Assembly: GCA_021785125.1 (NCBI GenBank)
Contig: JAJYGF010000013.1
Coordinates: forward strand, 41,413 to 105,412
From: a bacterium
Lineage (GTDB): Bacteria; Patescibacteriota; Minisyncoccia; Moranbacterales; UBA2206
DNA length: 64,000 nt
Reading direction: 5' to 3'
In this document: piece after piece, positions 1-51,312 of the stretch
Layout of the letters: every line of letters starts with the position of its first letter
Numbering within the stretch: the first letter of the stretch is position 1
Notes under the pieces: generated by a model
Told to the model about the DNA's origin: nothing
Database searches by the model: none
Seen by the model: the letters and a program-made list of their open reading frames with translations, nothing else
Position numbers and translations under genes: made by a program

Positions 1-24
1 TAATCGGCCTGGCATTACGCGGTC

Positions 25-582
25 TTGAATATGAAAATTAAACTTAATCTCATCCCTCAATACAAAAAAGAAGAATTGATCCGAGCCGCGCGTCTCCGGA
101 CTATTTTGAGATGGCAAACTGAAATCGGATTTATTCTGGCTATCTTTCTGGCGCTGCTCGTGAGTTTGAATTACATACTGCAATTCGATTTGACGGCGGC
201 TACCATGCCGATCAATTCCCAAAGCAAAGAAAAACAGGACAAGCTGGTTCAGTTTGCCGCAGAGTTCAAAGCGGTGAATGTCGAAGCGTCTCTGGATGAA
301 AATATCCAAAAAGATCAGCTGTATTGGTCGAGGCTATATATAAAGCTAAGCTCGCTCGCTCCGGACGGAATCAGTATGGCGAAAATGGCCAATAAGGACT
401 ATAAGGTCTTTCTGGCCGGCACCGCGGATACTCGCGATACGTTGATGAATTTTAAAGATAATCTGTCAAAAGATGATTGCTTTTCCGATATCAATCTGCC
501 GCTTTCAGATCTGGTTTTGCAGAACAATGTCGATTTCCAGATGGATTTTAATGTCAAAGAAAGTTGCGTGAAAAACAAATGA
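25..582 (+). CDS. pilN: Type IV pilus assembly protein PilN-like
   Basis: N-terminal motif KIKLNLIP followed by a single TM helix, ~185 aa; typical PilN architecture; followed by PilO-like gene with overlapping stop/start. Confidence 0.5.
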   Translation: MNMKIKLNLIPQYKKEELIRAARLRTILRWQTEIGFILAIFLALLVSLNYILQFDLTAATMPINSQSKEKQDKLVQFAAEFKAVNVEASLDENIQKDQLYWSRLYIKLSSLAPDGISMAKMANKDYKVFLAGTADTRDTLMNFKDNLSKDDCFSDINLPLSDLVLQNNVDFQMDFNVKESCVKNK

Positions 583-1229
583 AAGAATTCATAAGAAAAT
601 ACAAGTTGAATTTGTCGGTCTGCGCCTACCTGGTCGCGGTAGCTCTTGCTTTCTATTTCTTGTTCTTTCCGCTGGTGGACGGCATTCGAAGCAAGGCGGA
701 TGAAATCGAACGTAAGGAGATCGACGCCCAGATATATCAGGCGAAGCTCGACGGTATTCCGTCCATGGAGAAGAAATACGTTCTGGCCAAAGACGGGGAA
801 AGCAAGTTGGATGTGATCGTCCATGCCGACGGAGAAGTCGACATGATAAAAGAATTGGAAACGATGGCCGGGCAGACCGGCAATAAAATCCAATTTCAAG
901 TTCAGGACACCGCCGACGGCGCCGGAAAAAGCAAGCCGGCGGCCGGCAGCATAAAATCGAAGCTGTCGGACCAGAACTATCTTTCCATGCAGATCGCGCT
1001 GGAAGGAAGTTATGACGACCTGATATATTTTTTGCATAAGCTGGAGAATTACAAAGATTATATAAATGTCGTGAGCTTCAGCTCTGAAAAGATCCAGGCC
1101 GATAACGGCAGCGCCGCGCCGGCCGCCAACCAGCCGAATCCGTTTGCCGGTTCGCAGGCTAAAAGTTCCGCGCCAAGCCATGAAATATTGAATACGATAT
1201 TAGACGTCGTTGTTTATTTAAAAAAATGA
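564..1229 (+). CDS. Type IV pilus assembly protein PilO-like
   Basis: N-terminal TM, coiled-coil region then periplasmic domain; ~220 aa; position after PilN-like gene. Confidence 0.4.
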   Translation: MREKQMKEFIRKYKLNLSVCAYLVAVALAFYFLFFPLVDGIRSKADEIERKEIDAQIYQAKLDGIPSMEKKYVLAKDGESKLDVIVHADGEVDMIKELETMAGQTGNKIQFQVQDTADGAGKSKPAAGSIKSKLSDQNYLSMQIALEGSYDDLIYFLHKLENYKDYINVVSFSSEKIQADNGSAAPAANQPNPFAGSQAKSSAPSHEILNTILDVVVYLKK

Positions 1230-1552
1230 AGTTAGAATTTACAAACTTGCAAAACAAAATAAATTCCAAAGATCTCGTGGCCAAGTCGGCAAATTTTTTG
1301 AATCGGCGCGAAAAGGCCATTCTTATCGCGCTGTTTTTGGCCGCGTTGGCATATTGCGTTTATCTATGGTACGCCTATGCATACGATTTCAGCTGGGAAT
1401 CGGCCAAACGGCAGCAGTACATCGCCAGCCAGAACGATCAGACAAATCTTAACGAGGGTAAGCTTAACGGGGTTTTGGGAAATATTGATGCCCGTCAGAA
1501 AGAATTCGGCCAAGATATCAACGGGCCGGCGGATTTTTTCAGGTTGAAATAA
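1226..1552 (+). CDS. Small membrane protein, last gene of pilus assembly operon (PilP position)
   Basis: 4-nt overlap (ATGA) with upstream gene, N-terminal TM segment, followed by hairpin terminator. Confidence 0.35.
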   Translation: MKLEFTNLQNKINSKDLVAKSANFLNRREKAILIALFLAALAYCVYLWYAYAYDFSWESAKRQQYIASQNDQTNLNEGKLNGVLGNIDARQKEFGQDINGPADFFRLK

Positions 1553-1587
1553 AAACAACCCCGGCGCGGAGTTGTTTTTATTTTTTT
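1552..1587. terminator. Rho-independent terminator (AAAACAAC-loop-GTTGTTTT plus T-run), probably bidirectional
   Basis: Perfect 8-bp inverted repeat flanking GC-rich loop followed by T-run; sits between convergent pilus operon and tRNA array. Confidence 0.5.
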
Positions 1588-1588
1588 G

Positions 1589-1661
1589 TGCGCTGGGCAG
1601 GAATCGAACCTGCGACCAATAGCTTAGAAGGCTACTGCTCTATCCACTGAGCTACCAGCGC
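1589..1661 (-). tRNA. tRNA-Arg (anticodon UCU)
   Basis: Reverse complement folds as cloverleaf: acceptor GCGCTGG/CCAGCGC, D-arm GCTCAGTGGATAGAGC, anticodon loop CTTCTAA, T-arm GCAGGTTCGATTCCTGC; CCA not encoded. Confidence 0.85.
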
Positions 1662-1693
1662 TCAATTTTCGCATGCCAAGAAATCTGCAAGGG

Positions 1694-1765
1694 GGCGACT
1701 ACTGGGAATCGGACCCAGGTCCCAAGTGCCACAAACTCGTGTTCTGCCATTGAACTATAGTCGCC
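1694..1765 (-). tRNA. tRNA-His (anticodon GUG) with encoded G-1
   Basis: Acceptor GCGACTA/TAGTCGC, extra 5' G(-1) opposite discriminator C73 (bacterial His identity), anticodon loop TTGTGGC, T-loop TCCGATT; CCA not encoded. Confidence 0.8.
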
Positions 1766-1800
1766 ACTCTGAAGACTTCTTTTTTTGTTCGATCTTAGTG

Positions 1801-1873
1801 TGCATCCAGCTGGACTCGAACCAGCGACCGTTTGCTTAAGAGGCAACTGCTCTACCGACTGAGCTATGGATGC
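1801..1873 (-). tRNA. tRNA-Lys (anticodon CUU)
   Basis: Acceptor GCATCCA/TGGATGC, D-arm GCTCAGTCGGTAGAGC, anticodon loop CTCTTAA, T-arm GCTGGTTCGAGTCCAGC. Confidence 0.8.
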
Positions 1874-1886
1874 GTGATTTATTCGG

Positions 1887-1959
1887 TGCGCTCGGCAGGA
1901 ATCGAACCCACAACACCTTGGTCCGAAGCCAAGTGCTCTATCCGTTGAGCTACGAGCGC
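1887..1959 (-). tRNA. tRNA-Arg (anticodon UCG)
   Basis: Acceptor GCGCTCG/CGAGCGC, D-arm GCTCAACGGATAGAGC, anticodon stem CTTGG/CCAAG with loop CTTCGGA, T-loop TTCGATT. Confidence 0.75.
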
Positions 1960-2036
1960 CTGTCGGATCAAAGAAACCCGAGGACAATATGGCCATATTA
2001 ACAAAAAAAGCGCGGCTAGTCAATCAATGGAGGTTT

Positions 2037-3284
2037 TTAGCGGGATTTTTTCGATGAAGTTTGGTCGGGATGCGGATATTTGCTGGGAGAATCATAATTG
2101 CTGTTGAAGACATCCGCTCGGATAAGTTTGCCGTCGGTTCCGAACACCTGTTGCGTGAAGGTGGCCTTCATGGATCCGTCGGGATTTCTTTCCAGAATTT
2201 TGGGGCCGATCACGTTGACTTTCCTTCCGTCGTCGGTCCCGTAGAATTGAAAAATGAGTTGTGTGCCGGATATCTTCGTTTGGATGAGGATGTATCCCGG
2301 CGTGTCATTGATGAATCGCAGATCGGGCTGGGGGATATATACGGTAGCGTCCATGCCTTGCGGATCGTAGTAGCTGACCGGGTAAGCATGGTTTACTCGC
2401 TCGGTGATTTTCAGTCCGCTGTAGATGGCTGCTCGGAAAGCGGTGGTAGAAACCTGGCAGATCCCGCCTCCGAATTCCGGTTCGGTCTTGTTTTGTTTGA
2501 TTACCAGTTCCGGCAGATAGCCGTGTTCGGCATCCACCGGTCCTAATATTTTCACGAAAGAAAATTCTTCGCCGGGCTTGATGAGCACTCCGTTGAAACG
2601 TTCGGTAGCCACTTGAATATTGAAGACTCTGTTTCTCGGAGAGCCGCGAAAATCGGAATGTCCCTCTCCGATGAGCGAAGTGATGCCCAGGTTGTCGATG
2701 GAATCGGTCGAAATATCCGGATTTTTTTCGACATAAGGCAGAGAGACGGACGGATCCGGCTGTCTTTTGGACAGATAGTCAATCAGAACGGTGACGCTTT
2801 TTGTTTTGTCCAGCTTGATGCCTTTCTGGCTAAGCGAGAAAACAGAAGCCCGTCCGTCCGTTATTGTCAATTTCGCGTCCACCGGATCACGGTCCGCTTG
2901 CCTGGCGATGTCATCGACATATCGACTGACCGCATCTTTATCGACATACAGATGCGTGGCCAATTGAATGTGATTGTCATTTTTGTCACTGAAAGTCAAG
3001 GCGCATACGACAGATTTCTTGTATTTGCAAAAGTCGTCATTTTCTATTTCGGAACGGTAGCTTGGATTGTAATCGAGATCGCTTTTGGACGAGATCCATC
3101 CGGCAATCTCGGAGGCCGGAAGCACGGTTGAAAAGCCCCCGACATTTATGGTTAGGTCGCGCACGAATCCGGTCGGATCGTCGCCGGCAAAAGATCCCAA
3201 TGGAACGGTTTCGGCGCCAGCCGGTTTCATGCTCGGCAAGGCGATGACAAAAAGGAATAAAAAAAGTTTTATCATGTTTCGCAT
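2037..3284 (-). CDS. VanW-family protein (secreted/lipoprotein-like)
   Basis: Conserved VanW motif GGGICQVSTTAFRAAIYSGL; likely start at internal MIKLFLFLFVIALPS signal peptide (the longer ORF to 3338 adds a non-signal extension). Confidence 0.7.
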   Translation of the reverse strand: MRNMIKLFLFLFVIALPSMKPAGAETVPLGSFAGDDPTGFVRDLTINVGGFSTVLPASEIAGWISSKSDLDYNPSYRSEIENDDFCKYKKSVVCALTFSDKNDNHIQLATHLYVDKDAVSRYVDDIARQADRDPVDAKLTITDGRASVFSLSQKGIKLDKTKSVTVLIDYLSKRQPDPSVSLPYVEKNPDISTDSIDNLGITSLIGEGHSDFRGSPRNRVFNIQVATERFNGVLIKPGEEFSFVKILGPVDAEHGYLPELVIKQNKTEPEFGGGICQVSTTAFRAAIYSGLKITERVNHAYPVSYYDPQGMDATVYIPQPDLRFINDTPGYILIQTKISGTQLIFQFYGTDDGRKVNVIGPKILERNPDGSMKATFTQQVFGTDGKLIRADVFNSNYDSPSKYPHPDQTSSKKSR

Positions 3285-3375
3285 GCGTAAAGAATACCGT
3301 AAATCAGCGACGAAATCAATCTCAAAAATAAAAAACACCCCGCGACATGCCGGCAGGATGTTTCAAGCTTTTTAT

Positions 3376-3906
3376 TTAGAAGCCGCGAACCTGTATTTTC
3401 TTGGTTTTGGTGTTGTCGGCTTTCGGCAAGCGGATGGTCAAAATGCCGTTTTTCATCGAAGCTTCAGCCTTGTCCGCCAATACGTCCACTGGCAAAATGA
3501 CCGAGCGGGAAAAAGTGCCCCAATAACATTCCTGGTAATAATAATTTTCTTCTCCGACCATTTCATCATTTTTTCTTTCGCCACGGATGCTGACCATGTC
3601 GTTGTTGATGCTGACATCCAGATCTTCCGGCTTCACTCCGGCTATGGTCGACTTGATGACGATGTCGTTATCTGTCTGATAAACGTCAATCGTAAGCTGG
3701 CCTTCGCTGTCATCTCCGGACGAGAAACTTTCTTCCGACTGGACATTCAGGCTTTTTTTGGATTGGGGGGAGATTATCGTTTCGGCCTCCTCTTCTTCGT
3801 ATATGTTGGCCAGCGGCCTGATCGGCGTTTCATATTCTTCGTTATTGTCTTCGATGCGCGTAGAGCCCGTTAATTTTTCAAAAAATGACCTTTTTACTTT
3901 GACCAT
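3376..3906 (-). CDS. Hsp20/alpha-crystallin family small heat-shock protein
   Basis: ACD core with ...VSINNDMVSIRGER...GILTIRLPK signature, acidic N-terminal region. Confidence 0.85.
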   Translation of the reverse strand: MVKVKRSFFEKLTGSTRIEDNNEEYETPIRPLANIYEEEEAETIISPQSKKSLNVQSEESFSSGDDSEGQLTIDVYQTDNDIVIKSTIAGVKPEDLDVSINNDMVSIRGERKNDEMVGEENYYYQECYWGTFSRSVILPVDVLADKAEASMKNGILTIRLPKADNTKTKKIQVRGF

Positions 3907-3991
3907 TTATTTTTTTTAAAAAGTTATTTGTTATCTGACATTATTATAATTTAGTCTGGCGCATTTGGCAAATATGTTCGGCAGCCGCAAT

Positions 3992-4558
3992 CTAGGCGCT
4001 GTTCGGCTTCAATCTGCGGCCCAAAAACACCAAGAAAAGATAAGTTATCCCCAGGAACGCATAGGTGAAAACGTACGGCTGTTCATAGATCACCATGAGA
4101 TTGTAGGAGAGGTGCCAAATGAAAGCGAAAGAAATGGTTGTTGCCGTGCGCGCGAAAGACCCGTTCCAGCCATGAATTATGGATATGCCGATGAACAAGG
4201 CAGTGGCGATATGCAGGAGTAAGGCGCCGATGATGCCCGGATCAGGATAAGCCGTACGATTGAGCGCGGCATTTGAAAAGGCGAAAAACAATTCGACGGA
4301 AGCAAAACCCAAGCCGGCGAACAAAGCGCCCGAGATTTTTTTTTGGATTTCGCCGGCATAAAATTTTTCGAGCATTATAAATTTCGCGCTTTCTTCCAGG
4401 AGTACGACCACGAGAAGGAAAAGGGTTATCCGATTGAAATAATTGACCTCAATGTCTTGTCCGGACAGAATGAAATAGAGATTGGATACCAGCATTTCAA
4501 AGATCAGCGCTCCGGAAGCGGCGATTATCCCGAATAAAAATGGTTTCAACTTATTCAT
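3992..4558 (-). CDS. Polytopic membrane protein, possibly PrsW/CPBP-like intramembrane protease
   Basis: Multiple TM helices; EESAKF and conserved His residues reminiscent of PrsW EExxK...H motifs; start overlaps tsaD stop by 4 nt. Confidence 0.35.
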   Translation of the reverse strand: MNKLKPFLFGIIAASGALIFEMLVSNLYFILSGQDIEVNYFNRITLFLLVVVLLEESAKFIMLEKFYAGEIQKKISGALFAGLGFASVELFFAFSNAALNRTAYPDPGIIGALLLHIATALFIGISIIHGWNGSFARTATTISFAFIWHLSYNLMVIYEQPYVFTYAFLGITYLFLVFLGRRLKPNSA

Positions 4559-5625
4559 CGGTCTGACATTTTCAAATTAGCGTCGGTCTTGGTGTTTTTC
4601 CAACCGTCCGACAATCCGCGGAGGCCGGTTTTTTGGCAGCGGAAGTACGCGGCCGCTGCGATCATGGCGGCATTGTCCAATTGGAAAGCCGGTTCCGGGC
4701 AAGAAAATAGCGTGTTCGGAAAATTGTGCTTTACGGCTTCTTGCAGCTGTTTCTGCAGTTCGAGATTGGCGCTGACGCCGCCGGCAACAAGAATGCTCCT
4801 TGGTCCGTATTTTTTGGCCGCCGCGATTGTTTTGGCGGTCAGCACATCGATGACAGCTTGCTGAAACTCGCGACTCATGGACGAAATAAAATCAGGATTT
4901 TTCTTGAAGTCTTCATTTTTTTTCGTAGCGTAGAGCGCCGCCGTCTTCAGGCCGGAAAAGGAAAAATTAAAATCTCCGGAATTTATCATTGGGCGAGGAA
5001 GGCTTATGTCGTAATCTCTGGCGAATTTTGACGGCTGTTTTTGTGCTTCCGATGCTATAGCCGGGCCGCCCGGATAGCCCAAATCCAAAATTCTGGCCAC
5101 TTTGTCGAAAGCTTCGCCGACCGCGTCATCTTGCGTTTCGCCGATAATTCTGTAGTCCAGATGGTCTTCCATAAGAATCAGCTGCGTGTGGCCGCCGGAA
5201 ACGACCAGTGTCAAAACGGGAAAAGGGATGTCCGTGTCACGCTTCCCGATAAAGTTGGCGTAGATGTGTCCTTCAATGTGATGAATGCCGATGAGGGGTT
5301 TTTTCCAGGCATAGGCCAACGTTTTGGCGGCGGCGGTGCCGACCAGCAGTGCCGGAATAAGGCCGGGTCCGGAAGTGACGGCAATAAGATCGATCTCGTT
5401 CTTTCCGATTCCGGCCGTATCCAAGGCGGATTCGATCACCGGCAGAATATTTTTCAGATGTTCCCGGGCCGCCAGATTGGGAACCACACCGCCCCAGCGG
5501 GCATGCAACTTGATTTGCGAAGAAACCATGTTGGACAGCGGCTTGGCGAAGCCGTCAGTCCGGCTTATTCGGATGACGGAAGCGGATGTTTCATCGCATG
5601 ATGTTTCGATGCCGAGAATAATCAT
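4555..5625 (-). CDS. tsaD: tRNA N6-adenosine threonylcarbamoyltransferase TsaD (Kae1/Gcp family)
   Basis: N-terminal MIILGIETSCDETSASV, HxxxH metal-binding (HHIEGH), ASKHA fold motifs throughout. Confidence 0.9.
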   Translation of the reverse strand: MIILGIETSCDETSASVIRISRTDGFAKPLSNMVSSQIKLHARWGGVVPNLAAREHLKNILPVIESALDTAGIGKNEIDLIAVTSGPGLIPALLVGTAAAKTLAYAWKKPLIGIHHIEGHIYANFIGKRDTDIPFPVLTLVVSGGHTQLILMEDHLDYRIIGETQDDAVGEAFDKVARILDLGYPGGPAIASEAQKQPSKFARDYDISLPRPMINSGDFNFSFSGLKTAALYATKKNEDFKKNPDFISSMSREFQQAVIDVLTAKTIAAAKKYGPRSILVAGGVSANLELQKQLQEAVKHNFPNTLFSCPEPAFQLDNAAMIAAAAYFRCQKTGLRGLSDGWKNTKTDANLKMSDR

Positions 5626-5755
5626 AAAATTTTAAGTCCGATTAGCGTATGTTTAAGGCGGTCTGTTGGTATTATAGGTTATTCGAGATTCTCATACAAA
5701 TATAGTCCGACCGGCCGACGTAGTGAAATATTTTTTTAATATTTAAGTAATAATT

Positions 5756-6397
5756 ATGTCTAGCGTCAAATTGTCGGATGTGAAGAGAAAAGCTGGTTTG
5801 ATCGTCAGGCCGGAGAGCGATGCAAATGACAATGAAGTGGTGAAATCCGTGCGAGACGGCGAGCGCGAACTGTACGCTGTAATCATTGAAAGATACCAAG
5901 GGAAATTGTTCGCCTATCTTTATCGTTTGGTCGGCGGGCGAGAAGAGGCTGAAGATCTTCTGCAGGACGTTTTCATCAAGGCGTTTAAAAATCTCAACAG
6001 CTATGATTCGAATCGTAAGTTTTCTTCCTGGATATATCGCATCGCTCACAATGAAGCGGTCAACTATATCAAGCGGAAATCTCTGAAAAAATTCATTTCA
6101 TGGGAAGATGTGACTTCGACCAAGGACAAATTGGCTGGCAATAGTACGGAAGAGAGCGTGGATAATATCTGGATGAAAAAAGAGGCGATCCGCGAAGTGA
6201 ACGAAGCAATCGACAAGCTGCCCATCAAGTACAAACAAGTCCTTCTCTTGAGATATTATTCGGAAAAATCTTATGAAGAGATCGGCGAGATTCTGCGCAA
6301 ACCGGTGAATACCGTGGGCACATTGATCAATCGCGCCAAGAAAAAGATGGCCGAAGAGATGGAGCGATTGGAAAATAACAAACTGAAAAAAAGTTAG
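5756..6397 (+). CDS. ECF-type RNA polymerase sigma-70 factor
   Basis: Sigma-70 region 2 (DLLQDVFIKAF...FSSWIYRIAHNEAVNYIKRK) and region 4 HTH (YEEIGEILRKPVNTVGTLINRAKKKM). Confidence 0.85.
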   Translation: MSSVKLSDVKRKAGLIVRPESDANDNEVVKSVRDGERELYAVIIERYQGKLFAYLYRLVGGREEAEDLLQDVFIKAFKNLNSYDSNRKFSSWIYRIAHNEAVNYIKRKSLKKFISWEDVTSTKDKLAGNSTEESVDNIWMKKEAIREVNEAIDKLPIKYKQVLLLRYYSEKSYEEIGEILRKPVNTVGTLINRAKKKMAEEMERLENNKLKKS

Positions 6398-6619
6398 ATG
6401 CGTAACAATGAAATAGAAAAGCGTTATGAAGGGGATGTCTGCGATGCGGTCATGCGCCGGATACGCGAAGAAAATATCAAGATACGTCCGCGTGGATTTT
6501 TTTTGGCAGAAGATCTGATCGCACGCGGCATGATGGTGTTCGGTATGTTTGCCGCAATTTTGCTCGTTTTGGATATTTTTGCGCGTATGTTCGGATATGT
6601 CCATGCCACGGGCTTTTGA
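6398..6619 (+). CDS. Small membrane protein, putative anti-sigma factor
   Basis: Start codon immediately follows sigma factor stop (translational coupling); C-terminal TM helix. Confidence 0.3.
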   Translation: MRNNEIEKRYEGDVCDAVMRRIREENIKIRPRGFFLAEDLIARGMMVFGMFAAILLVLDIFARMFGYVHATGF

Positions 6620-6933
6620 TGATAAAATTTCCGGAAGGCCTGTTCCTGTCATTTAAGAAATAAAAAGCCCGTCCGATTCAATATCGAGCGGGCCTTACTG
6701 TCCTTGCGAACTGTTCTTTTCTAATTCTTTTTCTTCGACCACCTCCTTCTTTTTTTACCCCGGCTATTTTTATTTTCAGCCAGGCGTTTCATGGTTCCAT
6801 AAATCACCTCATTGGTCATTTCGAAGGATATCCTTCCTTTGTTGAAAGCGTGACCCAACGCGATGGCGCAACCTCTGCAAGCCCGTAGTCCTTTCTTTTT
6901 GGTGCTGGCGTAGAGGTTTTTGTTTTCTTATTC

Positions 6934-7482
6934 TCAGATGGGGCAGGTACCGCCTTCTATGAGTACCTTGGCAACGCGCCGGTGGTTTGAACTTTTCATC
7001 GATATGGTGCGATACCTTTCTTTCATCGCTTTTTGCTTTTCTTCTTTTGCCACAATCCGCAAGGGTGTTTCCGGCGGATCTTCCATACAAACATGGGAAT
7101 AAGCGGACCGAATCAAATCGGAAGGTCTGGCTGGTTGGTAAGTGCTTCGCCCTTCTTGTTCGCTTGTGCGGACAATGAGAAAATCTTCTCGTGACATGCA
7201 CATACGATTTACGATTTTAACAAGGTTTGTTTTCGGCAGGCCGATGCAATCGGTCCAGTGGGGAAATCTGCGCCTGAAATATGAGTAAAGCTCATCGATG
7301 CTTTTCGGATAGTTGCTTATGAAGCGTTGGAGCGCTTTCATTCTTATATAACCGATATGCACGAAGTTCCATGCACCACCCAGTTCGCCGAGAACAGCCT
7401 CCTGTTCGTTGTTAAAGATCTTGATGGCGGAAAAATTTTCGTATCCCGTGTAATACTTTATCTTGCCGATCTCTGCCACCAT
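6934..7482 (-). CDS. Hypothetical protein, possibly 5' portion of a frame-disrupted gene
   Basis: AGGAGG RBS precedes internal ATG (MVAEIGK...); downstream, two further frames (6809..7201 and a 32-codon ORF ~6713..6811) continue without intergenic space, suggesting frameshift decay. Confidence 0.3.
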   Translation of the reverse strand: MVAEIGKIKYYTGYENFSAIKIFNNEQEAVLGELGGAWNFVHIGYIRMKALQRFISNYPKSIDELYSYFRRRFPHWTDCIGLPKTNLVKIVNRMCMSREDFLIVRTSEQEGRSTYQPARPSDLIRSAYSHVCMEDPPETPLRIVAKEEKQKAMKERYRTISMKSSNHRRVAKVLIEGGTCPI

Positions 7483-7635
7483 GACTGCCTCCTTTGGCAA
7501 AATGGGGTTCAAGAATTAATGTTTTCTTAATCTTAAGCTAACAGCAAAAGATCTGTCAAATAGATCATCAATCTTATTTTAATGGAAATATCCAACTAAC
7601 AAGTGTTTCTAAGGTATAAAAACAAAGCTTGTCGT

Positions 7636-7666
7636 AGCCTTATTTTAATTTGTACCGCGTAGGGGA
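7636..7666. repeat. Degenerate copy of tRNA-Glu 3' end plus flanking island-end sequence (copy C)
   Basis: agccttattttaatttgtaccgcgtagggga resembles copy at 9747..9782 and the tRNA-Glu 3' end at 11353..11373; marks GC-content transition. Confidence 0.5.
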
Positions 7667-7734
7667 CAAGTTCAGAACTCTCGATTGGGTTAAGATTAGT
7701 AAAGAATTGCGGATATGGATGGATTTGAAAAGTA

Positions 7735-8769
7735 TTACTGCTTAATATTAATGCCAGTATCAGCAATAGTATTCAAAATATCGTTTGAATTGATAACAAA
7801 TCCAATGAACCTTTCGAATCCTACTCCAAATCCACCACGCACTAAATCGCCCTCTTCTTTAAACAAATTAAAGTACTCTTCAAATGGCATTATTGGGTCC
7901 TGATTCTTATCAGCGATAAATTTTCCTATTTTTGAATTCAAAAGATATTTTTTGATTTTATCGCCATCTTCTTCGCGTACTGCGCCACCAACCGTTTCGC
8001 CTAGAGGAGGGAGAAGCAAATCGAAACTAAATGTTTTTTGACCATCCTTTGTGCGTTTCATATTAAAAAATTTCAGCTTTGTTGGGTGATATGTTATAAA
8101 TGTTGGCACATTATTAAATGACTGCAGAATAAATCTTTCTTCCCTAATTCCCATGTCGTCACCGAATTTATAATGATTCAGATACTTTTTATTAAGTATG
8201 TCTATGGCTTGGTCATATGTAATAATGTTGAAAGGAATATGCGTGATTTTCTGCAAATAATCAACATCTCCTCCAAGTAAACTAAGTTCCCTTCGATTTT
8301 TTAATAATAATTCATCCGTAACTGTTTTAATTATTTGTTCTGCCTGCTTTATGATATTATTCAAAACTCTTTCAGGTTTTTGATTGCCATAAGGTCGTTC
8401 CGGTTCAATAAGGGTAAACTCAGAAAGTCTTCGATTTTTTGATTCTGGATCGTCGTAATTTTCTTCTCTAAAGCTATTATTGACAGTATAAAATCCTTTT
8501 CTTAGGCGCAGGACCAGCGCCTCAAGTTGTAGTTGGGCGCTTTGTGACAAATGGGCCTCACGGCCATAATAGTTCAACTTGAACGAGGCGTGAGGATTTT
8601 CGCAAGAGCCTGCAATATTTACTAGTGATGCCGTTGCAACCTCGTTGTATCCCAGCTTGCACAGTTCCTCGCGAAACGCAAGAAGTGCATTCGTTCTTAT
8701 GGAAGTCAGGGCGGCAAATCTGTCTTTGCTGAAAGTTCCCAGCCTTGTGGTAAAATTATCCTTTTGCAT
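7735..8769 (-). CDS. AsnRS/AspRS-like class II catalytic-core paralog lacking anticodon-binding domain (AsnA-like aspartate-ammonia ligase type)
   Basis: Class II motif 2-like FREENYDD...EFTLIEPE and motif 3 GGFGVGFERFIGFV; parallels aspS in this window (FITYHPTKLKFFNMKR vs FLTHYPSAIRPFYSMP) but starts directly in the catalytic domain. Confidence 0.65.
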   Translation of the reverse strand: MQKDNFTTRLGTFSKDRFAALTSIRTNALLAFREELCKLGYNEVATASLVNIAGSCENPHASFKLNYYGREAHLSQSAQLQLEALVLRLRKGFYTVNNSFREENYDDPESKNRRLSEFTLIEPERPYGNQKPERVLNNIIKQAEQIIKTVTDELLLKNRRELSLLGGDVDYLQKITHIPFNIITYDQAIDILNKKYLNHYKFGDDMGIREERFILQSFNNVPTFITYHPTKLKFFNMKRTKDGQKTFSFDLLLPPLGETVGGAVREEDGDKIKKYLLNSKIGKFIADKNQDPIMPFEEYFNLFKEEGDLVRGGFGVGFERFIGFVINSNDILNTIADTGINIKQ

Positions 8770-8937
8770 AATGTTTAAATGAAATTATTTCTTAATAGGG
8801 TAATTATCGAGTCTTAATGTCAAATTAGTCAACACTAATTTTAATTATTTATATTAAATAAGCCAAAATATGCTAATATATAATAAATTGGCGTCAAAAA
8901 TATTGACATTTATTATTTAAAATGCTAACGTTTATCC

Positions 8938-9687
8938 ATGGATATCAAAGCGACTTTACAAAAAATAGGCTTGAGTAAAAAAGAGGCAGATATATATTTG
9001 ACCTGTCTTGAATATGGCCCCACGACCATTACAAATATTGCCAGATTGTCCGGCTATAAACGGCCGACACTTTACAATTTAATGGAAGGATTACTGCAAA
9101 AAGGATTTGTAATTATAGTTAGAAGAAATAGTAAAACATACTATGATGTCGAGAAGCCAAAGCGCTTGCTTACTGTTTTACATGCCAGGGAAAAGGAGTT
9201 AGAGCAAGCGTTGCCAGAGCTGGAAATAATTAAAAATCGCAAACAGCCGCTACCGGAAGTAGAGATATACGATGCTGATGAGGCAATAAAAAATTTATAC
9301 GATGATATTTATAACCAATTAAACAGTCGTACTGAAACTTGTTTTCTTACTTCAATTTCTGATCTAAAAACGTATGCCCCGCATATCCTAGAGTCATATA
9401 TGTCGAAAATTAAAAATAAAAATTATATTATAAGGGAATTAATCTTTGATGATGAACAGGGTTGCAAATATGCCAAGGAAATGAAGGCATTAAATATTAA
9501 ACATGAAATAAGATTATTGCCGAACGATTTTCCAATATACAATGATATTGCTTTATATAATGGGAAGGTTTCAATTTTTTCTTTTAAAATACGCAGTTCA
9601 GCAACTATGATCGATAATTTGGAAATTGCCGCAACACTTAAAAGTCTGTTTGAATGGGCTTGGGTTAATGGAAAAAACATAAAATAA
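8938..9687 (+). CDS. TrmB-family transcriptional regulator
   Basis: N-terminal wHTH LSKKEADIYLTCLEYGPTTITNIARLSGYKRPTLYNLMEGLLQKGFV typical of TrmB; divergent to AsnA-like gene. Confidence 0.65.
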   Translation: MDIKATLQKIGLSKKEADIYLTCLEYGPTTITNIARLSGYKRPTLYNLMEGLLQKGFVIIVRRNSKTYYDVEKPKRLLTVLHAREKELEQALPELEIIKNRKQPLPEVEIYDADEAIKNLYDDIYNQLNSRTETCFLTSISDLKTYAPHILESYMSKIKNKNYIIRELIFDDEQGCKYAKEMKALNIKHEIRLLPNDFPIYNDIALYNGKVSIFSFKIRSSATMIDNLEIAATLKSLFEWAWVNGKNIK

Positions 9688-9746
9688 GCATTCAGCATAA
9701 GAAGTTCTGACATCCCTTTGGGGTATAAAAAAATAAGCCTCAAAAA

Positions 9747-9782
9747 AGCCTTGTTTTAATAGTACCGCCAAGGGGATTCGAA
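9747..9782. repeat. Partial direct repeat of tRNA-Glu 3' end (21/21 nt gtaccgccaaggggattcgaa) with shared upstream extension (copy B)
   Basis: Identical to 11353..11373; preceded by agccttgttttaat also present in copy C. Confidence 0.7.
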
Positions 9783-10101
9783 ACACTAGAAACTTCGTCT
9801 CATCAAGCCTCTATTAGAAGGAAAATTGGCCCATCTAAGCCTCAAGATAAGTTTTCAAGTATCTACAGGCGAAAACAAAAAAGAACTCATTTTACCATTT
9901 TTTTAGTCACAATAGCGTCACAGTTTTTTTGCGCTAAAGAATGACGGGTAGGTTTTTAATGTCTAGCCAAAAGTCACATTGTGCCTTATTCTTTCTATAG
10001 ACCAGGATGTACTTCTTCTATTACTTTTTTGTCAAAATATCTGCAAAAACTCTATTACCGGTTGCAGAAGCATATAAGTTTAGTTATTAACGAAAATAGA
10101 T

Positions 10102-10434
10102 TTACACGTTTGCTCTGGCCGCAAAATTAAAACTATAGAAATAATTCTGCCAGGACTGATCGCCTGAGTGATATTCGTTTGAGAATATAAAATAGTCGGC
10201 TAACATCTCTCTGAGTCTTAATAATTCTCTAAGATGTTTTTTGTTTTTCTTATCGGCGATAGTTAAATCCAAAAGTTCCAAGGCGCGATCAAAAGCCATG
10301 ACGCAATATACTTGATTTCTTTTGTTCTTCCACTTGATAGCTCGCTCGACCTCGCTACCAATATTGGCCATTTGATCAAATAGTTCCATTTCATTCCAGC
10401 GACCAGAAGCTAATTGTTGATGTTGGTGATTCAT
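10102..10434 (-). CDS. Hypothetical small protein (downstream member of pair, possible toxin/HEPN-like)
   Basis: 110 aa, basic, RELLRLREML...H region; operon geometry typical of TA modules. Confidence 0.25.
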   Translation of the reverse strand: MNHQHQQLASGRWNEMELFDQMANIGSEVERAIKWKNKRNQVYCVMAFDRALELLDLTIADKKNKKHLRELLRLREMLADYFIFSNEYHSGDQSWQNYFYSFNFAARANV

Positions 10435-10772
10435 TTTTCTATCAATTTATTTACAATTTTTATAATTTCCTCTTGTATTCTTTCATCATCCACTCCTCGG
10501 CTTCGATTACCCTGAGAAGGACGAAGATTGATCATAGAATCAAATTCAATAAAATCATCACCAGCCATTTCTGGATAGATGTTTATGCCCCACAGATTCT
10601 TCTGTTGTGATCCATTTTCTATAAGCAATGCTTCTTCATCCGCATGAAGTTCGCCATCCACTGCCATAATGTCCTTTTCCACGTCAACTACCGCCTTAAC
10701 TAAATTCCCGAACATCTTTTGTGACATTTCCTTGAGTTCTCCAATTGTTATTTTGTCTTTGATTATTTTCAT
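10431..10772 (-). CDS. Hypothetical small protein (upstream member of overlapping pair, possible antitoxin-like)
   Basis: 113 aa acidic protein; 4-nt ATGA overlap with downstream 110-aa ORF. Confidence 0.3.
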   Translation of the reverse strand: MKIIKDKITIGELKEMSQKMFGNLVKAVVDVEKDIMAVDGELHADEEALLIENGSQQKNLWGINIYPEMAGDDFIEFDSMINLRPSQGNRSRGVDDERIQEEIIKIVNKLIEK

Positions 10773-10919
10773 AAGTTCTTATTTATTAATACATTCTGAT
10801 TCTATTTCATTTTGGTAGTTTTGGAAAGTTTGGCTTAAATAAAAGAAAAAGCCGAGAGAGATTTCTCAGTCGGCTTTATAGGCTTTATTGCATTGGTTAG
10901 TTTCCCTACCGGCTTTTGA

Positions 10920-11243
10920 TCTGAAATTCAATCAGGGTGCCTTCTTCTCTTTACTGTCAGTAAGGAGAAGCCCTATAAAAAAGAGCAGCTGATACCAACA
11001 AAAAGAAAACCCAGTCTCTTCGATAGGAGCCTATTAAGGGATAAACTCCCCGAGGCATTTGTATTCACGAAGATGCGTACAGGCACGCACGACGGGAATG
11101 GTTTGTTATACATTCGGGCAAGATATTATTCACCTTCAATTGGCAGGTTCATAACAAAGGATCCGTTCAAGGGCGATGACAGAAGCACTCAGGGCTTGAA
11201 CAGATATATTTATGCGCTGAATAATCCGGTCCGGTTATTGTGA
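10920..11243 (+). pseudogene. RHS/YD-repeat core C-terminal fragment (no start codon, no toxin tip)
   Basis: Open frame without ATG encodes ...GLLYIRARYYSPSIGRFITKDPFKGD...NRYIYALNNPVRLL*, the hallmark RHS-core terminal motif (YxRARYYDPxxGRFxxxDP). Confidence 0.6.
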
Positions 11244-11353
11244 CAAAGAAGTGATGAAACGGGTCTTTTCCTGCGACGAATAATAATGAGTAAGAATTGA
11301 GATATTGGCTTTAGATAAGACAGAATGCGGTCTGAAGAGTCTTATCTCGTTTG

Positions 11354-11429
11354 TACCGCCAAGGGGATTCGAACCCCTGATTTCCAGGATGAAAACCTGG
11401 CGTCCTGGACCGGGCTAGACGATGGCGGC
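11354..11429 (-). tRNA. tRNA-Glu (anticodon UUC)
   Basis: GCCGCCATCGTCTAG... anticodon stem CCAGG/CCTGG loop TTTTCAT, T-arm CAGGGGTTCGAATCCCCT; strong resemblance to bacterial tRNA-Glu; CCA not encoded. Confidence 0.8.
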
Positions 11430-11563
11430 ATGGTCTGAAACATTCAGAATAACAGTAGGAATCATAGCATAAAACAAAAATAAATCAAGATTCGGCCGGT
11501 TTCATCCATCTGAAGTATATTCCAATCCTAAGAAGATACCGAAATCATAATTGGGGTTTTCGA

Positions 11564-12811
11564 TTAATTTGTTAAACCCCGGTTAATTTTTTTGAATAAT
11601 TCGTCTTTGGCTTGCATCATCTTTTTTCCAAAATCATTATCGCTTTCCGCATAAGCGATTTTATCCAAATCTTCAAAAGTTATTCCCGCTTTCAAATATT
11701 GAGAGGCCTGATCCAGCGACTTGAATTTTTCGTATGGAGTGAGAGTGATGTTGTATTTCTTTCGTATTTTTCCTTTTGCATCAATTCTTTCTTCAGCGAA
11801 CAAGCAGGGCCGGTGATAGTTGAGGTAAACGTTTACGTACGCGCGGTTGAACTCTTCGATCAATGACGCAAACTTTTGATCGATGAAATTTCTGCCGTAC
11901 AATTTTCTCACGATGCTGCCATTCTTTGATTCCACCAGAGCATTGTCATTGGTATGCCTGGCCCGGGATTTGCTTTGTTCGATTAAAAGTTCGGTCAGAA
12001 GCTCGGCCACAATCCTGTTGAGATATTCACTGCCGTTGTCGGAATGAAATTCGTAAACCTTGAAAGGAAACAATCCTAACAATTCTTTAAGCACCGGCTT
12101 CAAAAAATGATGGCTTATGCCCTCGACTGTGGCTATCATCTCATACTGCGTAACTTCGTCAACGAGATTGATATGGTAAACACCCTTCACTTTGTCTAAA
12201 TCACCCTGATGTACGCTGTCTACGCGCAAATAGCCGGGCTTGCCGTAAGGATTGGGCTTTCTCCTGATTCCGATATTTACATTTGTAGTCGGCGTATGCT
12301 TAAAAAACAGAGCCGGAGAACTTTTGTACTGTCGATTGTGATTGCGGAGATTGTACAGATGGGAGATTGAAATCCTGGCAATATTTGCGTATTCTTTTTT
12401 GCCAAAAATTTCTGATTCGCGGCGCAGGATTTCCTTGGTGGCTTTGCCGTTCAAGCATTGGTGGGTGATATCCGTATCAATCAGCCGCTCTATGTCAGTC
12501 GCGAAATATTTTACCGGAAATTTGTTTCGTTTTCTTCCCGGATTCCAGAAAAGAAGTCCTTTGCGCCAACGGTTAACCAATTTTTTGGTGTGTCCTCGGG
12601 AATAGCCGGTTAAAAATTTCAGATACCGGATGACAATTGCTTTTTCTTTTTTTCTAAGCTTAGCATACCCGGTCTTAATCAATACGGTTTTCAAAAACTC
12701 ATATTTTTCCGGATCGCTCCCGATCTCCATTTGGATGAAGTCGTTGGACTTCAAAAACTCCTCCATCTGGCCTATACTGCCAGTAGGCAAGTTATTCATA
12801 TTGATGTTCAT
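11564..12811 (-). mobile_element. DDE transposase, integrase-core (rve) type, IS481-like
   Basis: N-terminal HTH region, then catalytic core YHINLVDEVTQY...HSDNGSEY...NALVESKNGSIVRK (D,D,E triad context). Confidence 0.75.
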
Positions 12812-12924
12812 ACCTCCAATTATGAATATGACTTGCCTTCCTACAAAGTGAGCCTTTTCGGGCTCATTTTGTGTTGGAACGGAAACTCATTTGGGTATCA
12901 TCTTGCATTGAACAAGACTAAAAG

Positions 12925-12990: not shown

Positions 12991-14286
12991 ATGGACAAGA
13001 ATATATATTTGCATGAGAATTCTTCAATAATAGCCTTAGATCCAAATGAAGCTAGTTTTGAAGTCGTAGAAAGAAAATTCCGTGGTCATCCTGACTCAAT
13101 GGCCGATATGGTGGCACAGTCATTTACACAGAAATATATCAAGAGTGCGTGGGAAAAAATACCTGAACTTTCCAATATTTATTTTCCAAATTTTTCTTCA
13201 GACAAAGTAGTTTTATCTGGTGCAAGTACAAGGTGTGTAAATGGAAAATGCGAAATTATTAAGCCGGTAGATGCTTTGCTCATAGGCAAAATAACAGAGA
13301 AAATTGGAAATATAGAAATAGATATAGATGCAATTTTTAAAGATTCCGTTGAAACTGTATTAAGCAGATGTCTAGGACACAATGATTTCAAGCCATATGT
13401 AAATAGAAAGACATATTCAATATCATTCGCAGGAGCTGACCATGATAAGGGATTTTACAATCCAAGTTCAGTAGCTGATTTGTTGAAAATACTTAAAAAT
13501 GAGACACATGCAAATGATACGGTTTATGTTGTAGCGTATTCACCATTAAGTGTATCAGAAAAGCTTGTAATCTATCTGGATAATCTTACGGCATCAAAAG
13601 AATTCAAAAAGTTATTTCCAGAGATTGGTTCGGATATTAAAGCGATGGTTCGCAGAAGATCATCGGATTTCGAAATCACAATGTGTTTACCGGTTTTTCC
13701 AGAAAAAATTCAAGATAATCAGCTATATAATCGTATCATTAAAGAAGCTACAAAATATATCCATAAAGAAATTATCCTCTTTCTTGAAAAAAACACTCGA
13801 TATTTCAAAAAACCAACAATAAAACTGTGGACTAATACTAAGGATACAAAGGATAAAAAATATTATGCAATTTGGGGTACCGCTCTTTCAAAAGGTGACG
13901 TTGGGGCGGTTGGACGTGGAAATCGGCAACAAGGATTTATAAGTGGCGTGCGGCCAAGCACGAATGAGGCTATGTCGGGAAAAAATCCAAATCATTTTGC
14001 GGGAATTGTGTATCAGCTTGTTGCAGAAAATATCTCAAAATTGATTTTTGACGAACTTGGGCAAAAAAACGCCATATACATTACTGCGAACAATGGAGAT
14101 TTTTTAGAACATCCGAATTCTATAGATGTAATCCTAGAAAAAAATAGCTTATATCAAAAAGAAGCAATTTCTAAAATCGTAAAAAAATCATTAAAGTTGA
14201 TCCCTGAGTTCCGCATGAATTTCATAAATTCTGATCCATACGAGAGATTCATGAGTTCCAATATGCTTTCACGTAAGGTTAAATGA
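12991..14286 (+). CDS. Archaeal-type S-adenosylmethionine synthetase (MAT) homolog
   Basis: VERKFRGHPDSMADMVAQ, HANDTVYVVAYSPLSVSEKLV, GDVGAVGRGNR...GVRPSTNEAMSGKNPNHFAGIVYQ all parallel archaeal MAT (MJ1208-type) motifs. Confidence 0.8.
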   Translation: MDKNIYLHENSSIIALDPNEASFEVVERKFRGHPDSMADMVAQSFTQKYIKSAWEKIPELSNIYFPNFSSDKVVLSGASTRCVNGKCEIIKPVDALLIGKITEKIGNIEIDIDAIFKDSVETVLSRCLGHNDFKPYVNRKTYSISFAGADHDKGFYNPSSVADLLKILKNETHANDTVYVVAYSPLSVSEKLVIYLDNLTASKEFKKLFPEIGSDIKAMVRRRSSDFEITMCLPVFPEKIQDNQLYNRIIKEATKYIHKEIILFLEKNTRYFKKPTIKLWTNTKDTKDKKYYAIWGTALSKGDVGAVGRGNRQQGFISGVRPSTNEAMSGKNPNHFAGIVYQLVAENISKLIFDELGQKNAIYITANNGDFLEHPNSIDVILEKNSLYQKEAISKIVKKSLKLIPEFRMNFINSDPYERFMSSNMLSRKVK

Positions 14287-14430
14287 TTCGATGAGGTTAA
14301 TAGTTATAGCGAAAAGAATCGATTAGATTTTTTTCGCTGCAACTATACTATTTTGATAGTTGGAGTTGATCATTGACAATTTAAAAATAAGACAGTAAAC
14401 AACAAACAACAAAGAAAGGAGTTGAGAGGC

Positions 14431-15900
14431 ATGGCTTACAGAGATGCAGACAAGGTGATATCTAGAATTGGTATAACACCAGTAGGAAGTGCGAAGTATC
14501 GCGTCAATAGATTGCGGTTTCATCTTTTAGCCTATGCAATAACAAGAAAGTTCCAGTTGGCTGGAAAAGAAGCCGCATTTTTTATAAGATGCGATGACAC
14601 TGACAGTAGTAATGTAAATCTTGCATTTCTAGATTCGTATCTGGAAGTGCTGTTCTCATTGGGAGTTGTGCCGAATTTAACCCCCTATGACAAAGATAGT
14701 GGGGGCTTCTCCCTTTTCCAGTCCAAAAGAGGCGATCTTTATAAGATGTTTATAGACCGTCTTTTGGAATCCGGCTTGGCATTTAAGGATTCTACCGGGG
14801 CAATCTTTTTTCACACAGAAGAGTTTTCGAGGAGATTTCAGGGTTTATTAACAGATAATAAACTTGAAGTTGAGGATGCTTCAATCGGAAGCTTCGCTGT
14901 TGATATCCGAACTCCGCTGAAAGAAAAAAGCGGTAAAATTGGGCTGATTTCATTTCCCTTAGTGCGAGCAAATGGAACATATCTCTTCAGTCTGTGTTCG
15001 CCAGTGGACGATGGGGTGATGGGAATTACACATGTTGTAAGGGACCGGGATAAACTCGATTTACTTTCGAGACAGGAAATGGTTAGGATTTCACTGGGAT
15101 TTCCGTCCATAACATATGTCCATGTTCCGTTGCTTGTTAACCAAGACGGCAAGAGATTTGTTTGTGATGAGTACTGGGGAGATGCTACATTTCAGGATTT
15201 TGTAGCCAAAGGAATATTTCCCAAGGCGTTAGTGTCGTATCTTCTTTCTGGATTCTTTGGTCCGTCAGAGAAGTATTACTCATCAATTGAAGATTTTGCT
15301 TCCCAAATAAATCTTGGGCGACTTCATCAGTCCAATACAGTCTTTGATGAGTCGGTTCTTAAGCAACACAACAAAAAAGCATTGGAAGGTTCTTCGGTGC
15401 TGGAGTACGAAACAGCACTAAAAAACTTCCTTGCTGGCGATAACCCAGTGGCCCTTGATTGTCTTAAATCAGATTCAGATATGCTGGAAATGATGATAAG
15501 AATGAAGAGGGGGCTATCAGAAACAGGCGACATTATCCATAGCTTGTCTCAATTTCTGCACGACGATCCGGACATCAAGCACATAAGAATACTAAATACG
15601 ATTATCACCTTCTTTTTACAGAAAGAGAGTGGGATGCGGGATCATTCTTGTGCAAATTTCATGCTTGAAATGGCTACGGAGCATGCGAAAAACCTTGGTA
15701 CTTCCAGAAAGGAATATTATAAGGCGTTAAGATATATTCTTACTGGCAAATACCAAGGGTGTGATTTGCATGAGGTAGTGGGGTATCTGGAAAAGAAGGG
15801 AGTTGTGATGGCGAGGATAAAAGCTACAAGAAACGAGCTGATAAAACGCAATCTCCTAATGGAATCTAGGAGTCACACTTTAAGCAGGAGGTTAGAATGA
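14431..15900 (+). CDS. Glutamyl-tRNA synthetase paralog with degenerate HIGH and KMSKS motifs
   Basis: Collinear with GluRS: RIGITPVG|SAKYR (PSPTG|xxHIG position), FFIRCDDTDSSN (RIEDTDxxR), ITHVVRDRD (THVIRGEDH), LVSYLLSGFFG (LxNYLxxLGWS); KMSKS position reads GKRFV; AAAGGAG RBS 9 nt before ATG at 14431. Confidence 0.7.
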   Translation: MAYRDADKVISRIGITPVGSAKYRVNRLRFHLLAYAITRKFQLAGKEAAFFIRCDDTDSSNVNLAFLDSYLEVLFSLGVVPNLTPYDKDSGGFSLFQSKRGDLYKMFIDRLLESGLAFKDSTGAIFFHTEEFSRRFQGLLTDNKLEVEDASIGSFAVDIRTPLKEKSGKIGLISFPLVRANGTYLFSLCSPVDDGVMGITHVVRDRDKLDLLSRQEMVRISLGFPSITYVHVPLLVNQDGKRFVCDEYWGDATFQDFVAKGIFPKALVSYLLSGFFGPSEKYYSSIEDFASQINLGRLHQSNTVFDESVLKQHNKKALEGSSVLEYETALKNFLAGDNPVALDCLKSDSDMLEMMIRMKRGLSETGDIIHSLSQFLHDDPDIKHIRILNTIITFFLQKESGMRDHSCANFMLEMATEHAKNLGTSRKEYYKALRYILTGKYQGCDLHEVVGYLEKKGVVMARIKATRNELIKRNLLMESRSHTLSRRLE

Positions 15901-19078: not shown

Positions 19079-19092
19079 GCAGTCCTTTTTAC

Positions 19093-19168
19093 TCATAAAA
19101 TAGTTCTAACGTCCCTGACCGTGGTGTGCATTTAAATTCAAGGCTTGTTTGAGCCTTGTTTTTGTTTA
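19093..19168 (+). repeat. ~85-nt intergenic repeat element, copy 2 (ends in hairpin AAGGCTTGTTTGAGCCTT + T-run)
   Basis: Homologous to 17562..17648. Confidence 0.55.
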
Positions 19169-51283: not shown

Positions 51284-51287
51284 ATAA

Positions 51288-51312
51288 AGGCTCGAAAAAG
51301 CCTTATTTTTTA
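51288..51312. terminator. Rho-independent terminator AAGGCT-CGAAAA-AGCCTT + T-run
   Basis: After RAYT stop. Confidence 0.6.

Follow-up and report, generated by a model that had tools for sequence, protein, structure and literature searches.

A probable decayed array of small integrative islands at the 3' end of a tRNA-Glu gene in a Patescibacteriota genome

The window analyzed here is a 64,000-nucleotide (nt) stretch of a Moranbacterales genome (Patescibacteriota; assembly GCA_021785125.1, contig JAJYGF010000013.1, positions 41,413 to 105,412), which encompasses an intact tRNA-Glu(UUC) gene with partial copies of its 3' end scattered over the adjoining DNA. The region between 7.6 and 11.35 kb is probably a decayed array of small integrative islands that entered at the 3' end of this gene via site-specific recombination. 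Two copies of the tRNA 3' end, an exact one (copy B) and a more distant, degenerate one (copy C), divide the region into segment 1, between the tRNA and copy B, and segment 2, between copies B and C. For copy B and segment 1, integration is demonstrated at the level of sequence comparison, and for copy C and segment 2, it is probable. The preliminary description of this DNA proposed successive integrations; this proposal stands insofar as more than one event took place at tRNA-Glu, the integrases have been lost, and copy B with segment 1 is well backed, whereas for copy C and segment 2 it is not demonstrated.

The tRNA-Glu attachment site and segment 1

The tRNA-Glu(UUC) gene (11354-11429, minus strand; detected by ARAGORN and by the Rfam tRNA model with 61.3 bits) is intact, lacks an encoded CCA and is the single tRNA-Glu(ttc) gene. 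It is the attachment gene, the core being its 3' 21 nt (11353-11373). This 21-mer, GTACCGCCAAGGGGATTCGAA, spans the T-loop, the 3' half of the T-stem, the 3' acceptor strand, the discriminator and one more base, and occurs exactly twice in the 64 kb, at 11353-11373 and, as copy B, at 9762-9782 (minus strand), an attR-type scar (attR denoting one of the two junctions of an integrated element). Beyond the exact core, looser similarity of copy B to the tRNA reaches approximately 9789. Given an exact direct repeat of 21 nt and matches with up to three mismatches in 0 of 100 shuffled sequences, a chance origin is not expected, which confirms the exact copy originally reported at this position. Copies B and C are both in the orientation of the tRNA, and all three copies (tRNA, B and C) are followed in that direction by a hairpin; those after B and C are terminator-like, given their T runs. 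The hairpin and T run after copy B (9722-9761, minus strand; fold z = -3.1) hold a 14-nt extension that recurs at copy C (see below), and the tRNA's own flank is weakly similar to the B and C flanks (77% in a 44-nt register).

A search for the attachment core in related assemblies, suggested in the preliminary description, proved productive: a scan of metagenome contigs with the 21-nt core yielded 106 loci (labeled L025-L130), mostly full tRNA-Glu genes along with several internal 3' fragments, and three of the contigs recovered, here denoted J, L029 and L040, carry an integrase together with the same core. Viral contigs scanned with this core produced no match, so that there is no evidence of phage origin. 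In J (metagenome contig Ga0334722_10000151, comprising L074 and L057), a tRNA-Glu gene with the same anticodon arm as in the window is followed by a terminator, a tyrosine integrase gene (PF00589, E = 1e-34), four cargo genes for membrane proteins unrelated to the genes of the window, and the 21-nt repeat 5.3 kb further on; past the repeat, the order continues with a terminator and then the structured element X (see below), the 3' end of which is a third partial copy. The arrangement in L029 is arm motif, an open reading frame (ORF) of the excisionase-like HTH_17 family, motif, 108 nt, core, terminator, motif and integrase. This is an attP-like arrangement (that is, like the attachment site of the free element) or a tandem junction, and it documents the occurrence, within this element family, of a core with an arm on either side. 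In L040, the order is integrase, motif, terminator, core, 94 nt and motif; the L040 attP region is also called as a spurious "tRNA-Arg" by ARAGORN. L029 (700-1700) and L040 (1-770) have homologous integrases and arm motifs, with the core in opposite orientations relative to the arms and the integrase. The T-arm core, GGGGTTCGAATCCCC, is near-palindromic, and the T-loop TTCGAA within it is palindromic, which may be the reason why both orientations occur. Together, J, L029 and L040 define a family of very small tRNA-Glu-targeting elements in these bacteria; they share with the window the 21-nt core, homologous arm motifs (CTGTGACRCTATWGTGACAAAGAAGTG) and the spacing between motif and core. Unlike the window, all three retain the integrase (and L029 also the HTH_17 gene), so that the window contains remnants rather than a functional member of the family.

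The attribution of segment 1 hinges on its two ends. Leading into copy B is the P-arm of a J/L029-type element (9783-9929, minus strand): over about 150 nt from B toward the tRNA, the sequence aligns with the attR of J and the attP arms of L029, with the motif CTGTGACGCTATTGTGAC (9906-9923, minus strand) some 120 nt ahead of core B and the same motif-to-core spacing, and blastn aligns 9876-9929 with L029 200-252 at 80% identity. At the opposite end, an element-derived arm (11236-11352, plus strand) abuts the 3' end of the tRNA. It starts with the motif TATTGTGACAAAGAAGTGATGAAA (11236-11259), which is unique within the window, identical over 24 nt to J (L057 3100-3123 region) and 96% identical to L040, and continues with a 93-nt spacer; the approximately 115 nt beside the tRNA 3' end align with the L040 arm, sharing GTTT at the tRNA end and the motif-to-core spacing. 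It follows from these alignments with integrase-bearing elements that the present 3' flank of the tRNA is element-derived and that copy B is an attR-type junction. The two arms of segment 1 point outward, each matching a different element variant (J/L029-type at B, L040-type at the tRNA), and there is no internal core between them. Segment 1 thus probably consists of the fused remains of two elements, and its original interpretation as a single island has to be abandoned.

The genes between these arms are few. A partial RHS repeat-associated core domain, lacking both of its ends (11073-11243, plus strand; PHROG 10385), scores above the cut-off for NCBIfam TIGR03696 (Rhs_assc_core; E = 2.4e-15) over profile positions 25-69 of 76. 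The domain is cut at position 69 exactly where the arm motif starts, and the fragment comes with neither YD repeats nor a toxin tip. Cargo also includes a gene for a 113-amino acid (aa) DUF5674 protein (10431-10772, minus strand; PF18924, E = 2e-38), for which no NCBIfam, PHROG or PADLOC family was found, and, overlapping it by 4 nt, a 110-aa ORF (10102-10434, minus strand) with no Pfam, NCBIfam or PHROG match and a single weak match to PADLOC PDC-S49 (E = 0.0018). The preliminary description labeled these two genes a toxin-antitoxin-like pair; no toxin-antitoxin family was detected in Pfam, NCBIfam or PHROGs, nor did PADLOC support a role as a defense pair, so the label is dropped. The gene content is otherwise as originally given, namely the RHS fragment in segment 1 and, in segment 2, an AsnA-like ligase and a TrmB regulator.

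Between 7.6 and 11.35 kb, there is no ORF with a Phage_integrase or Resolvase domain, and tblastn searches of the 64-kb window returned nothing even at an E-value threshold of 50 when the integrases of J and L029 and the excisionase-like protein of L029 served as queries; integrase or excisionase pseudogenes, sought as candidates, were not detected. The earlier statement that no integrase remains is accordingly accurate for tyrosine and serine recombinases, but it overlooked an insertion sequence (IS) with a DDE (rve) transposase 85 nt from the tRNA, as well as the associated rearrangements.

The small elements of CPR relatives possess a tyrosine integrase gene and a little cargo, in some cases together with an excisionase-like gene of the HTH_17 type, and their attP contains at least the last 21 nt of tRNA-Glu, after which comes a terminator that belongs to the element. 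In the window, the attR-type junction of a J/L029-type element is represented by copy B and the approximately 150 nt on its tRNA side, and the approximately 115 nt at the tRNA 3' end are the arm of a variant of the L040 type, whose core is inverted with respect to its arms. On this basis, we propose the following scenario. Two such elements would have been integrated in tandem, and an internal deletion would have taken both integrase genes and the middle att copy, leaving the RHS-core fragment, DUF5674 and the 110-aa ORF between outward-facing arms. More tentatively, segment 2 would represent what is left of an older island, and copy C would be its distal scar, derived from a tRNA-Glu allele with a different acceptor stem. 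Subsequently, the IS would have inserted upstream of the tRNA, and recombination between IS copies would have inverted a segment, parting the tRNA from a glycosyltransferase gene.

Tandem island arrays and swapped (mosaic) attP halves at tRNA and transfer-messenger RNA (tmRNA) genes have been described (PMC9580842). With the known tRNA-targeting islands (P4-like, SaPI-like and Islander/TIGER-type), the region shares an intact tRNA at one end and a direct repeat of its 3' end at the other, an element-supplied replacement 3' end, repeated arm motifs, deviant GC content, decay by deletion and mosaic attP halves (PMC9580842). It differs from them in the very small size (5.3 kb for the intact element in J, 1.6-2.1 kb for the remnants in the window), the candidate phyla radiation (CPR) host and the loss of the integrases, and in that the related elements carry the core in both orientations (L029 and J versus L040). 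The mechanism is textbook and events of this kind are well known, such that the present case is an added example rather than a new principle; it suggests that small CPR genomes, too, gain genes via tRNA-targeted islands, here an asparagine-synthetase-like enzyme and a regulator, and that integration scars can still be read after the integrase is gone.

Other recombinase genes also occur at this site. Large serine recombinase genes abut the 3' end of tRNA-Glu in L079 (3736-5289) and L102 (316-1870), so that, together with the tyrosine-integrase elements, they identify tRNA-Glu as a recurrent integration target in these bacteria. At several loci, a second copy of the 21-nt core is located 135 nt (L027 13745-13900; L108 1623-1778) or 312 nt (L118 494-826) downstream of tRNA-Glu, and these close repeats may be minimal scars of deleted islands.

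Copy C and the TrmB-AsnRS-like module of segment 2

Segment 2 encompasses two divergent genes. One encodes a 249-aa TrmB-family regulator (8938-9687, plus strand; PF01978, E = 1.2e-14), and the other a 344-aa paralogue of the AsnRS/AspRS catalytic core (7735-8769, minus strand; Pfam tRNA-synt_2, E = 9e-34), which lacks the anticodon-binding domain and resembles archaeal-type asparagine synthetase; the NCBIfam AsnRS and AsnA models match it, but far under their cut-offs. The AsnRS-like family is patchily distributed across CPR and DPANN, with 55-69% identity. The two genes form a conserved divergent module and are always paired in L131, L139 and L140/L141; between the window and L131, the module shows 68% nucleotide identity over 1.4 kb. 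In L139, it adjoins a large serine recombinase gene (3547-5232) and an rve gene, the recombinase being 28% identical to those that abut tRNA-Glu in L079 and L102. In L140, a distant CPR contig, the module lies 1.5 kb downstream of tRNA-Glu (tRNA-Glu and module region, 3498-7026), in the same order and orientation as in the window, and its GC content is 0.36 versus 0.455 in the flanks. These features fit the TrmB and AsnRS-like pair being mobile, low-GC cargo that tends to land at tRNA-Glu.

Copy C (7652-7685, minus strand) is a degenerate sequence resembling the tRNA-Glu 3' end. Its core, GTACCGCGTAGGGGA (7652-7666), matches in 13 of 15 bases, and with a 4-nt insertion, T-loop-like similarity reaches approximately 7685. 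A terminator-like hairpin with a T run follows (7612-7651, minus strand; 11-bp stem, z = -2.0) and resembles that of B. The 14-nt extension AGCCTTRTTTTAAT is confined, with one mismatch allowed, to the positions next to B (9747-9760) and C (7636-7649), within a flank similarity between B and C of about 39 nt (GGTATAAAAA...AGCCTT.TTTTAAT). The joint score of core and flank, 36 compared to 24-33, exceeds the maxima of 30 of 30 simulations. The acceptor part of copy C, ACGCGGTAC, differs from the tRNA of the window and equals that of the tRNA-Glu of L010, a Moraniibacteriota metagenome-assembled genome (MAG); judging from the sequence, copy C derives from another tRNA-Glu allele. The GC content is 0.31-0.37 from 7.4 to 10.8 kb and 0.41-0.48 left of 7.5 kb, such that, as previously described, it drops at the outermost repeat, copy C, from a level of about 0.46, and the composition of the segments differs from that of the chromosome on the left flank (0.41-0.55).

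Several observations weigh against the interpretation of the entire region as an island array. Taken alone, copy C is within the range of genome-wide shuffles (core score 20 versus maxima of 19-26, flank score 24 versus 21-28), so that this degenerate copy, although present as first reported, is significant only jointly with its flank. It was also claimed that the extension shared by B and C is absent from the tRNA; its restriction to B and C holds, but it is in part a generic terminator arm of this genome, terminators of the same type (AAGGCTC...AGCCTT followed by a T run) occurring at ~51280-51310 (plus strand) and ~19090-19125 (minus strand), and the tRNA flank itself is weakly similar. Copy C has no att arm motif, and its acceptor strand does not pair with the present 5' strand of the tRNA, so C cannot be the end that was displaced from the present gene. 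A search for att repeats around the module found none in either L131 or L140. With regard to the array structure, B lies internally between segments 1 and 2, segment 1 has two arms and no internal core, and C is armless; the history of tandem integration and deletion in segment 1 is a reconstruction, not an observation, and because no integrase or excisionase remnant is present in the window, integration is read only from its scars. No allele with an empty site was found, the arrangement being the same in every contig of this population. In favor of insertion, comparison with relatives, proposed earlier as a check, showed that the syntenic relatives with sigma, antisigma and TsaD genes (L101, L097, L053, L082 and L010) have none of the segment genes and instead show tRNA-Glu, terminator, X and glycosyltransferase, but they are distant (TsaD of the nearest relatives is 57-74% identical), and a close empty-site allele is lacking.

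Element X and the alternative explanations

Directly after tRNA-Glu and its terminator, eleven relatives (L101, L097, L075, L096, L053, L082, L088, L034, L093, L130 and J) contain X, a GC-rich element of 100-170 nt (for example, L075 1822-1975; L053 5075-5235, minus strand; L057 3290-3450). The tRNA 3' end recurs at both ends of X, in antisense at the start, CCAAGGGGATTCGAACGGGCAG..., and in sense at the close, ...AATCCCCTTGGCGGTAC, where CA follows in some cases and a terminator belonging to X comes last. The ends form a 12-14-bp closing stem and the internal hairpins covary: in an alignment of six sequences only, 91% of the cells are paired and 10 pairs changed on both sides, a value reached in 0 of 500 shuffles, with slid controls far lower. 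A known RNA, such as tmRNA, was considered and discarded, there being no ARAGORN or Rfam match. X is a candidate new non-coding RNA or att-related structure, as far as its sequence indicates, and may deserve a study of its own. The conserved X body was sought in the window and is absent. There is a degenerate match to the X 5' end, CCCCAAAGGGATGTCAGAAC (9700-9721, minus strand), directly after the terminator of B, where X starts in relatives; no other minus-strand match in the window scores higher, yet shuffled sequences reach comparable scores. Degenerate X5'-like sequence is likewise present after the terminators in the P' arms of J and L029, and hence such a sequence cannot separate native flank from element arm.

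These features underlie the principal competing explanation, under which only segment 1 is integrase-derived, copy C and 9700-9721 are the two ends of a native X, and the module was inserted into the X body or replaced it. We consider this unlikely, but not to be dismissed lightly: X directly follows tRNA-Glu and its terminator in the eleven relatives and ends with the sense copy and a terminator; the serial pattern of J (tRNA, island, repeat, terminator, X) is the same as that of the window; the X5'-like sequence is the top minus-strand match and occupies the position at which X starts in relatives; and both putative X ends share a derived TTCTGA/TCAGAA change and could pair. This explanation is compromised by the shuffle-range score of the X5'-like sequence, the missing X body, the lack of any relative with a gene-interrupted X and the presence of X5'-like sequence in the P' arms of J and L029. 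A more elaborate version, in which X, a previously undescribed element with copy C and the post-B sequence as its ends, serves as a second landing pad with hairpin ends or as a gene-capture site that took the TrmB and AsnRS-like cassette in this genome, the near-palindromic T-arm core letting the same integrase family work in both orientations, strikes us as quite improbable.

Were copy C a chance 13/15 match next to an ordinary terminator, segment 2 would have been acquired, or would be native, with no surviving scar, and B would be the sole scar. The expectation of ~0.1 for a 13/15 match in 128 kb of both strands, the single scores of core and flank within the shuffle maxima and the similar terminators at 51.28 and 19.1 kb are compatible with this, but copy C has the orientation of B and the tRNA, lies against a terminator in the same register and at the GC break, and has a T-loop-like continuation. 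Moreover, the joint score is above all 30 simulations, and the two differences in C reproduce the acceptor sequence of a related tRNA-Glu (L010), all of which renders chance very unlikely. It is still harder to credit, indeed hardly credible at all, that the copies are pseudo-tRNAs produced by local duplication of the tRNA gene or that they were generated by the neighboring DDE transposase. The IS is only 85 nt from the tRNA, and in L140, a 5' tRNA-Glu-like fragment (3402-3436) is located 94 nt upstream of the intact tRNA-Glu, a case of such a fragment beside its gene. In the window, however, the repeats cover the 3' 21-30 nt only and never the 5' part, on which ground duplication of the tRNA gene was rejected; B is preceded by an att arm homologous to those of integrase elements; and the IS, located beyond the opposite end of the tRNA, is delimited to the base and has 5-bp target duplications of its own.

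The neighboring IS and the genomic setting

The integration of islands at tRNA-Glu, as proposed above, has to be disentangled from a rearrangement on the other side of the gene. Minus-strand positions 11514-12919, starting 85 nt from the tRNA 5' end, are an IS481-like IS of 1406 bp with a gene for a 415-aa rve transposase (11564-12811; NCBIfam IS481 E = 1.7e-11, Pfam rve E = 1.2e-5, both under the curated cut-offs). Exactly this span is 100% identical in L136 (2893-4298), L137 (652-2057) and L138, where the other flank differs from that in the window, such that the IS is present in at least two identical copies. It shares with the IS481 family the rve DDE transposase, terminal inverted repeats, short target duplications, multiple identical copies and inversion between copies, but its 44 bits compared to the NCBIfam cut-off of 224 make it a distant member at best. 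In the window, the IS is flanked by TCTGA (11509-11513) and AAAAG (12920-12924), and the other copy by AAAAG and TCTGA; for the 5-bp target duplications to match, the flanks of the two copies have to be exchanged, which implies an inversion by recombination between two inverted IS copies. The other copy adjoins a glycosyltransferase gene (L136, L137 and L138) that is the orthologue of the gene downstream of tRNA-Glu in L053, L082, L034 and L101, the aa identity being 76-79% in the first three, across the full protein or most of it, and 60% over a 161-aa partial match in L101. Separately, the terminator region at ~19.1 kb shares 79% identity with DNA flanking the second IS copy (L137 2114-2228).

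From these junction sequences, it appears that before the inversion, the 5' flank of the tRNA faced the glycosyltransferase gene, and the AdoMet synthetase region that now lies beyond the IS was not a neighbor of the tRNA. This low-GC region was therefore rejected as part of the islands, not having been adjacent to the tRNA before the IS-mediated inversion. The rve gene was likewise rejected as the missing integrase: it is carried by an IS that exists in multiple copies, has ends and target duplications of its own, and lies 5' of the tRNA. The IS, which marks a rearrangement breakpoint, does not belong to the islands and did not contribute to the formation of the tRNA fragments. The block 6620-11513, from the tRNA to the gene of a 259-aa protein, is inverted relative to the sigma, antisigma and TsaD genes compared to the five syntenic relatives named above, and L075 and L096 show another arrangement, tRNA, X and TsaD. 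The tRNA with 60 nt of its 5' flank (11350-11489) is 85-89% identical to the orthologous loci of L101, L034, L093, L097, L075 and L096, and homology to the 5' flank in relatives ends at 11489.

Among the GTDB genomes, the closest TsaD relatives are MAGs of Candidatus Moraniibacteriota and Ca. Elulimicrobium (57-60% identity). Window positions 1-11654 are 99.98-100% identical in metagenome contigs from several samples, all of which end at 11654, inside the repeated IS. The sole two differences between the window and all matching contigs, at 6930 and 6934, both create stop codons (TAA and TGA) in the gene of the 259-aa protein (6721-7500, minus strand), which forms the left flank of copy C and has no assigned function, making it a pseudogene in this copy. 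This protein was also compared with the product of the gene downstream of tRNA-Glu in L010 as a possible counterpart, and the two are unrelated. To the right of the IS, the local gene order ends with the archaeal-type AdoMet synthetase gene; 12991-14286 and 14422-15900 hold, in this order, the low-GC archaeal-type methionine adenosyltransferase and a divergent GluRS/GluQRS-like paralogue, which scores far under the NCBIfam cut-offs and has an unusual TTG start.

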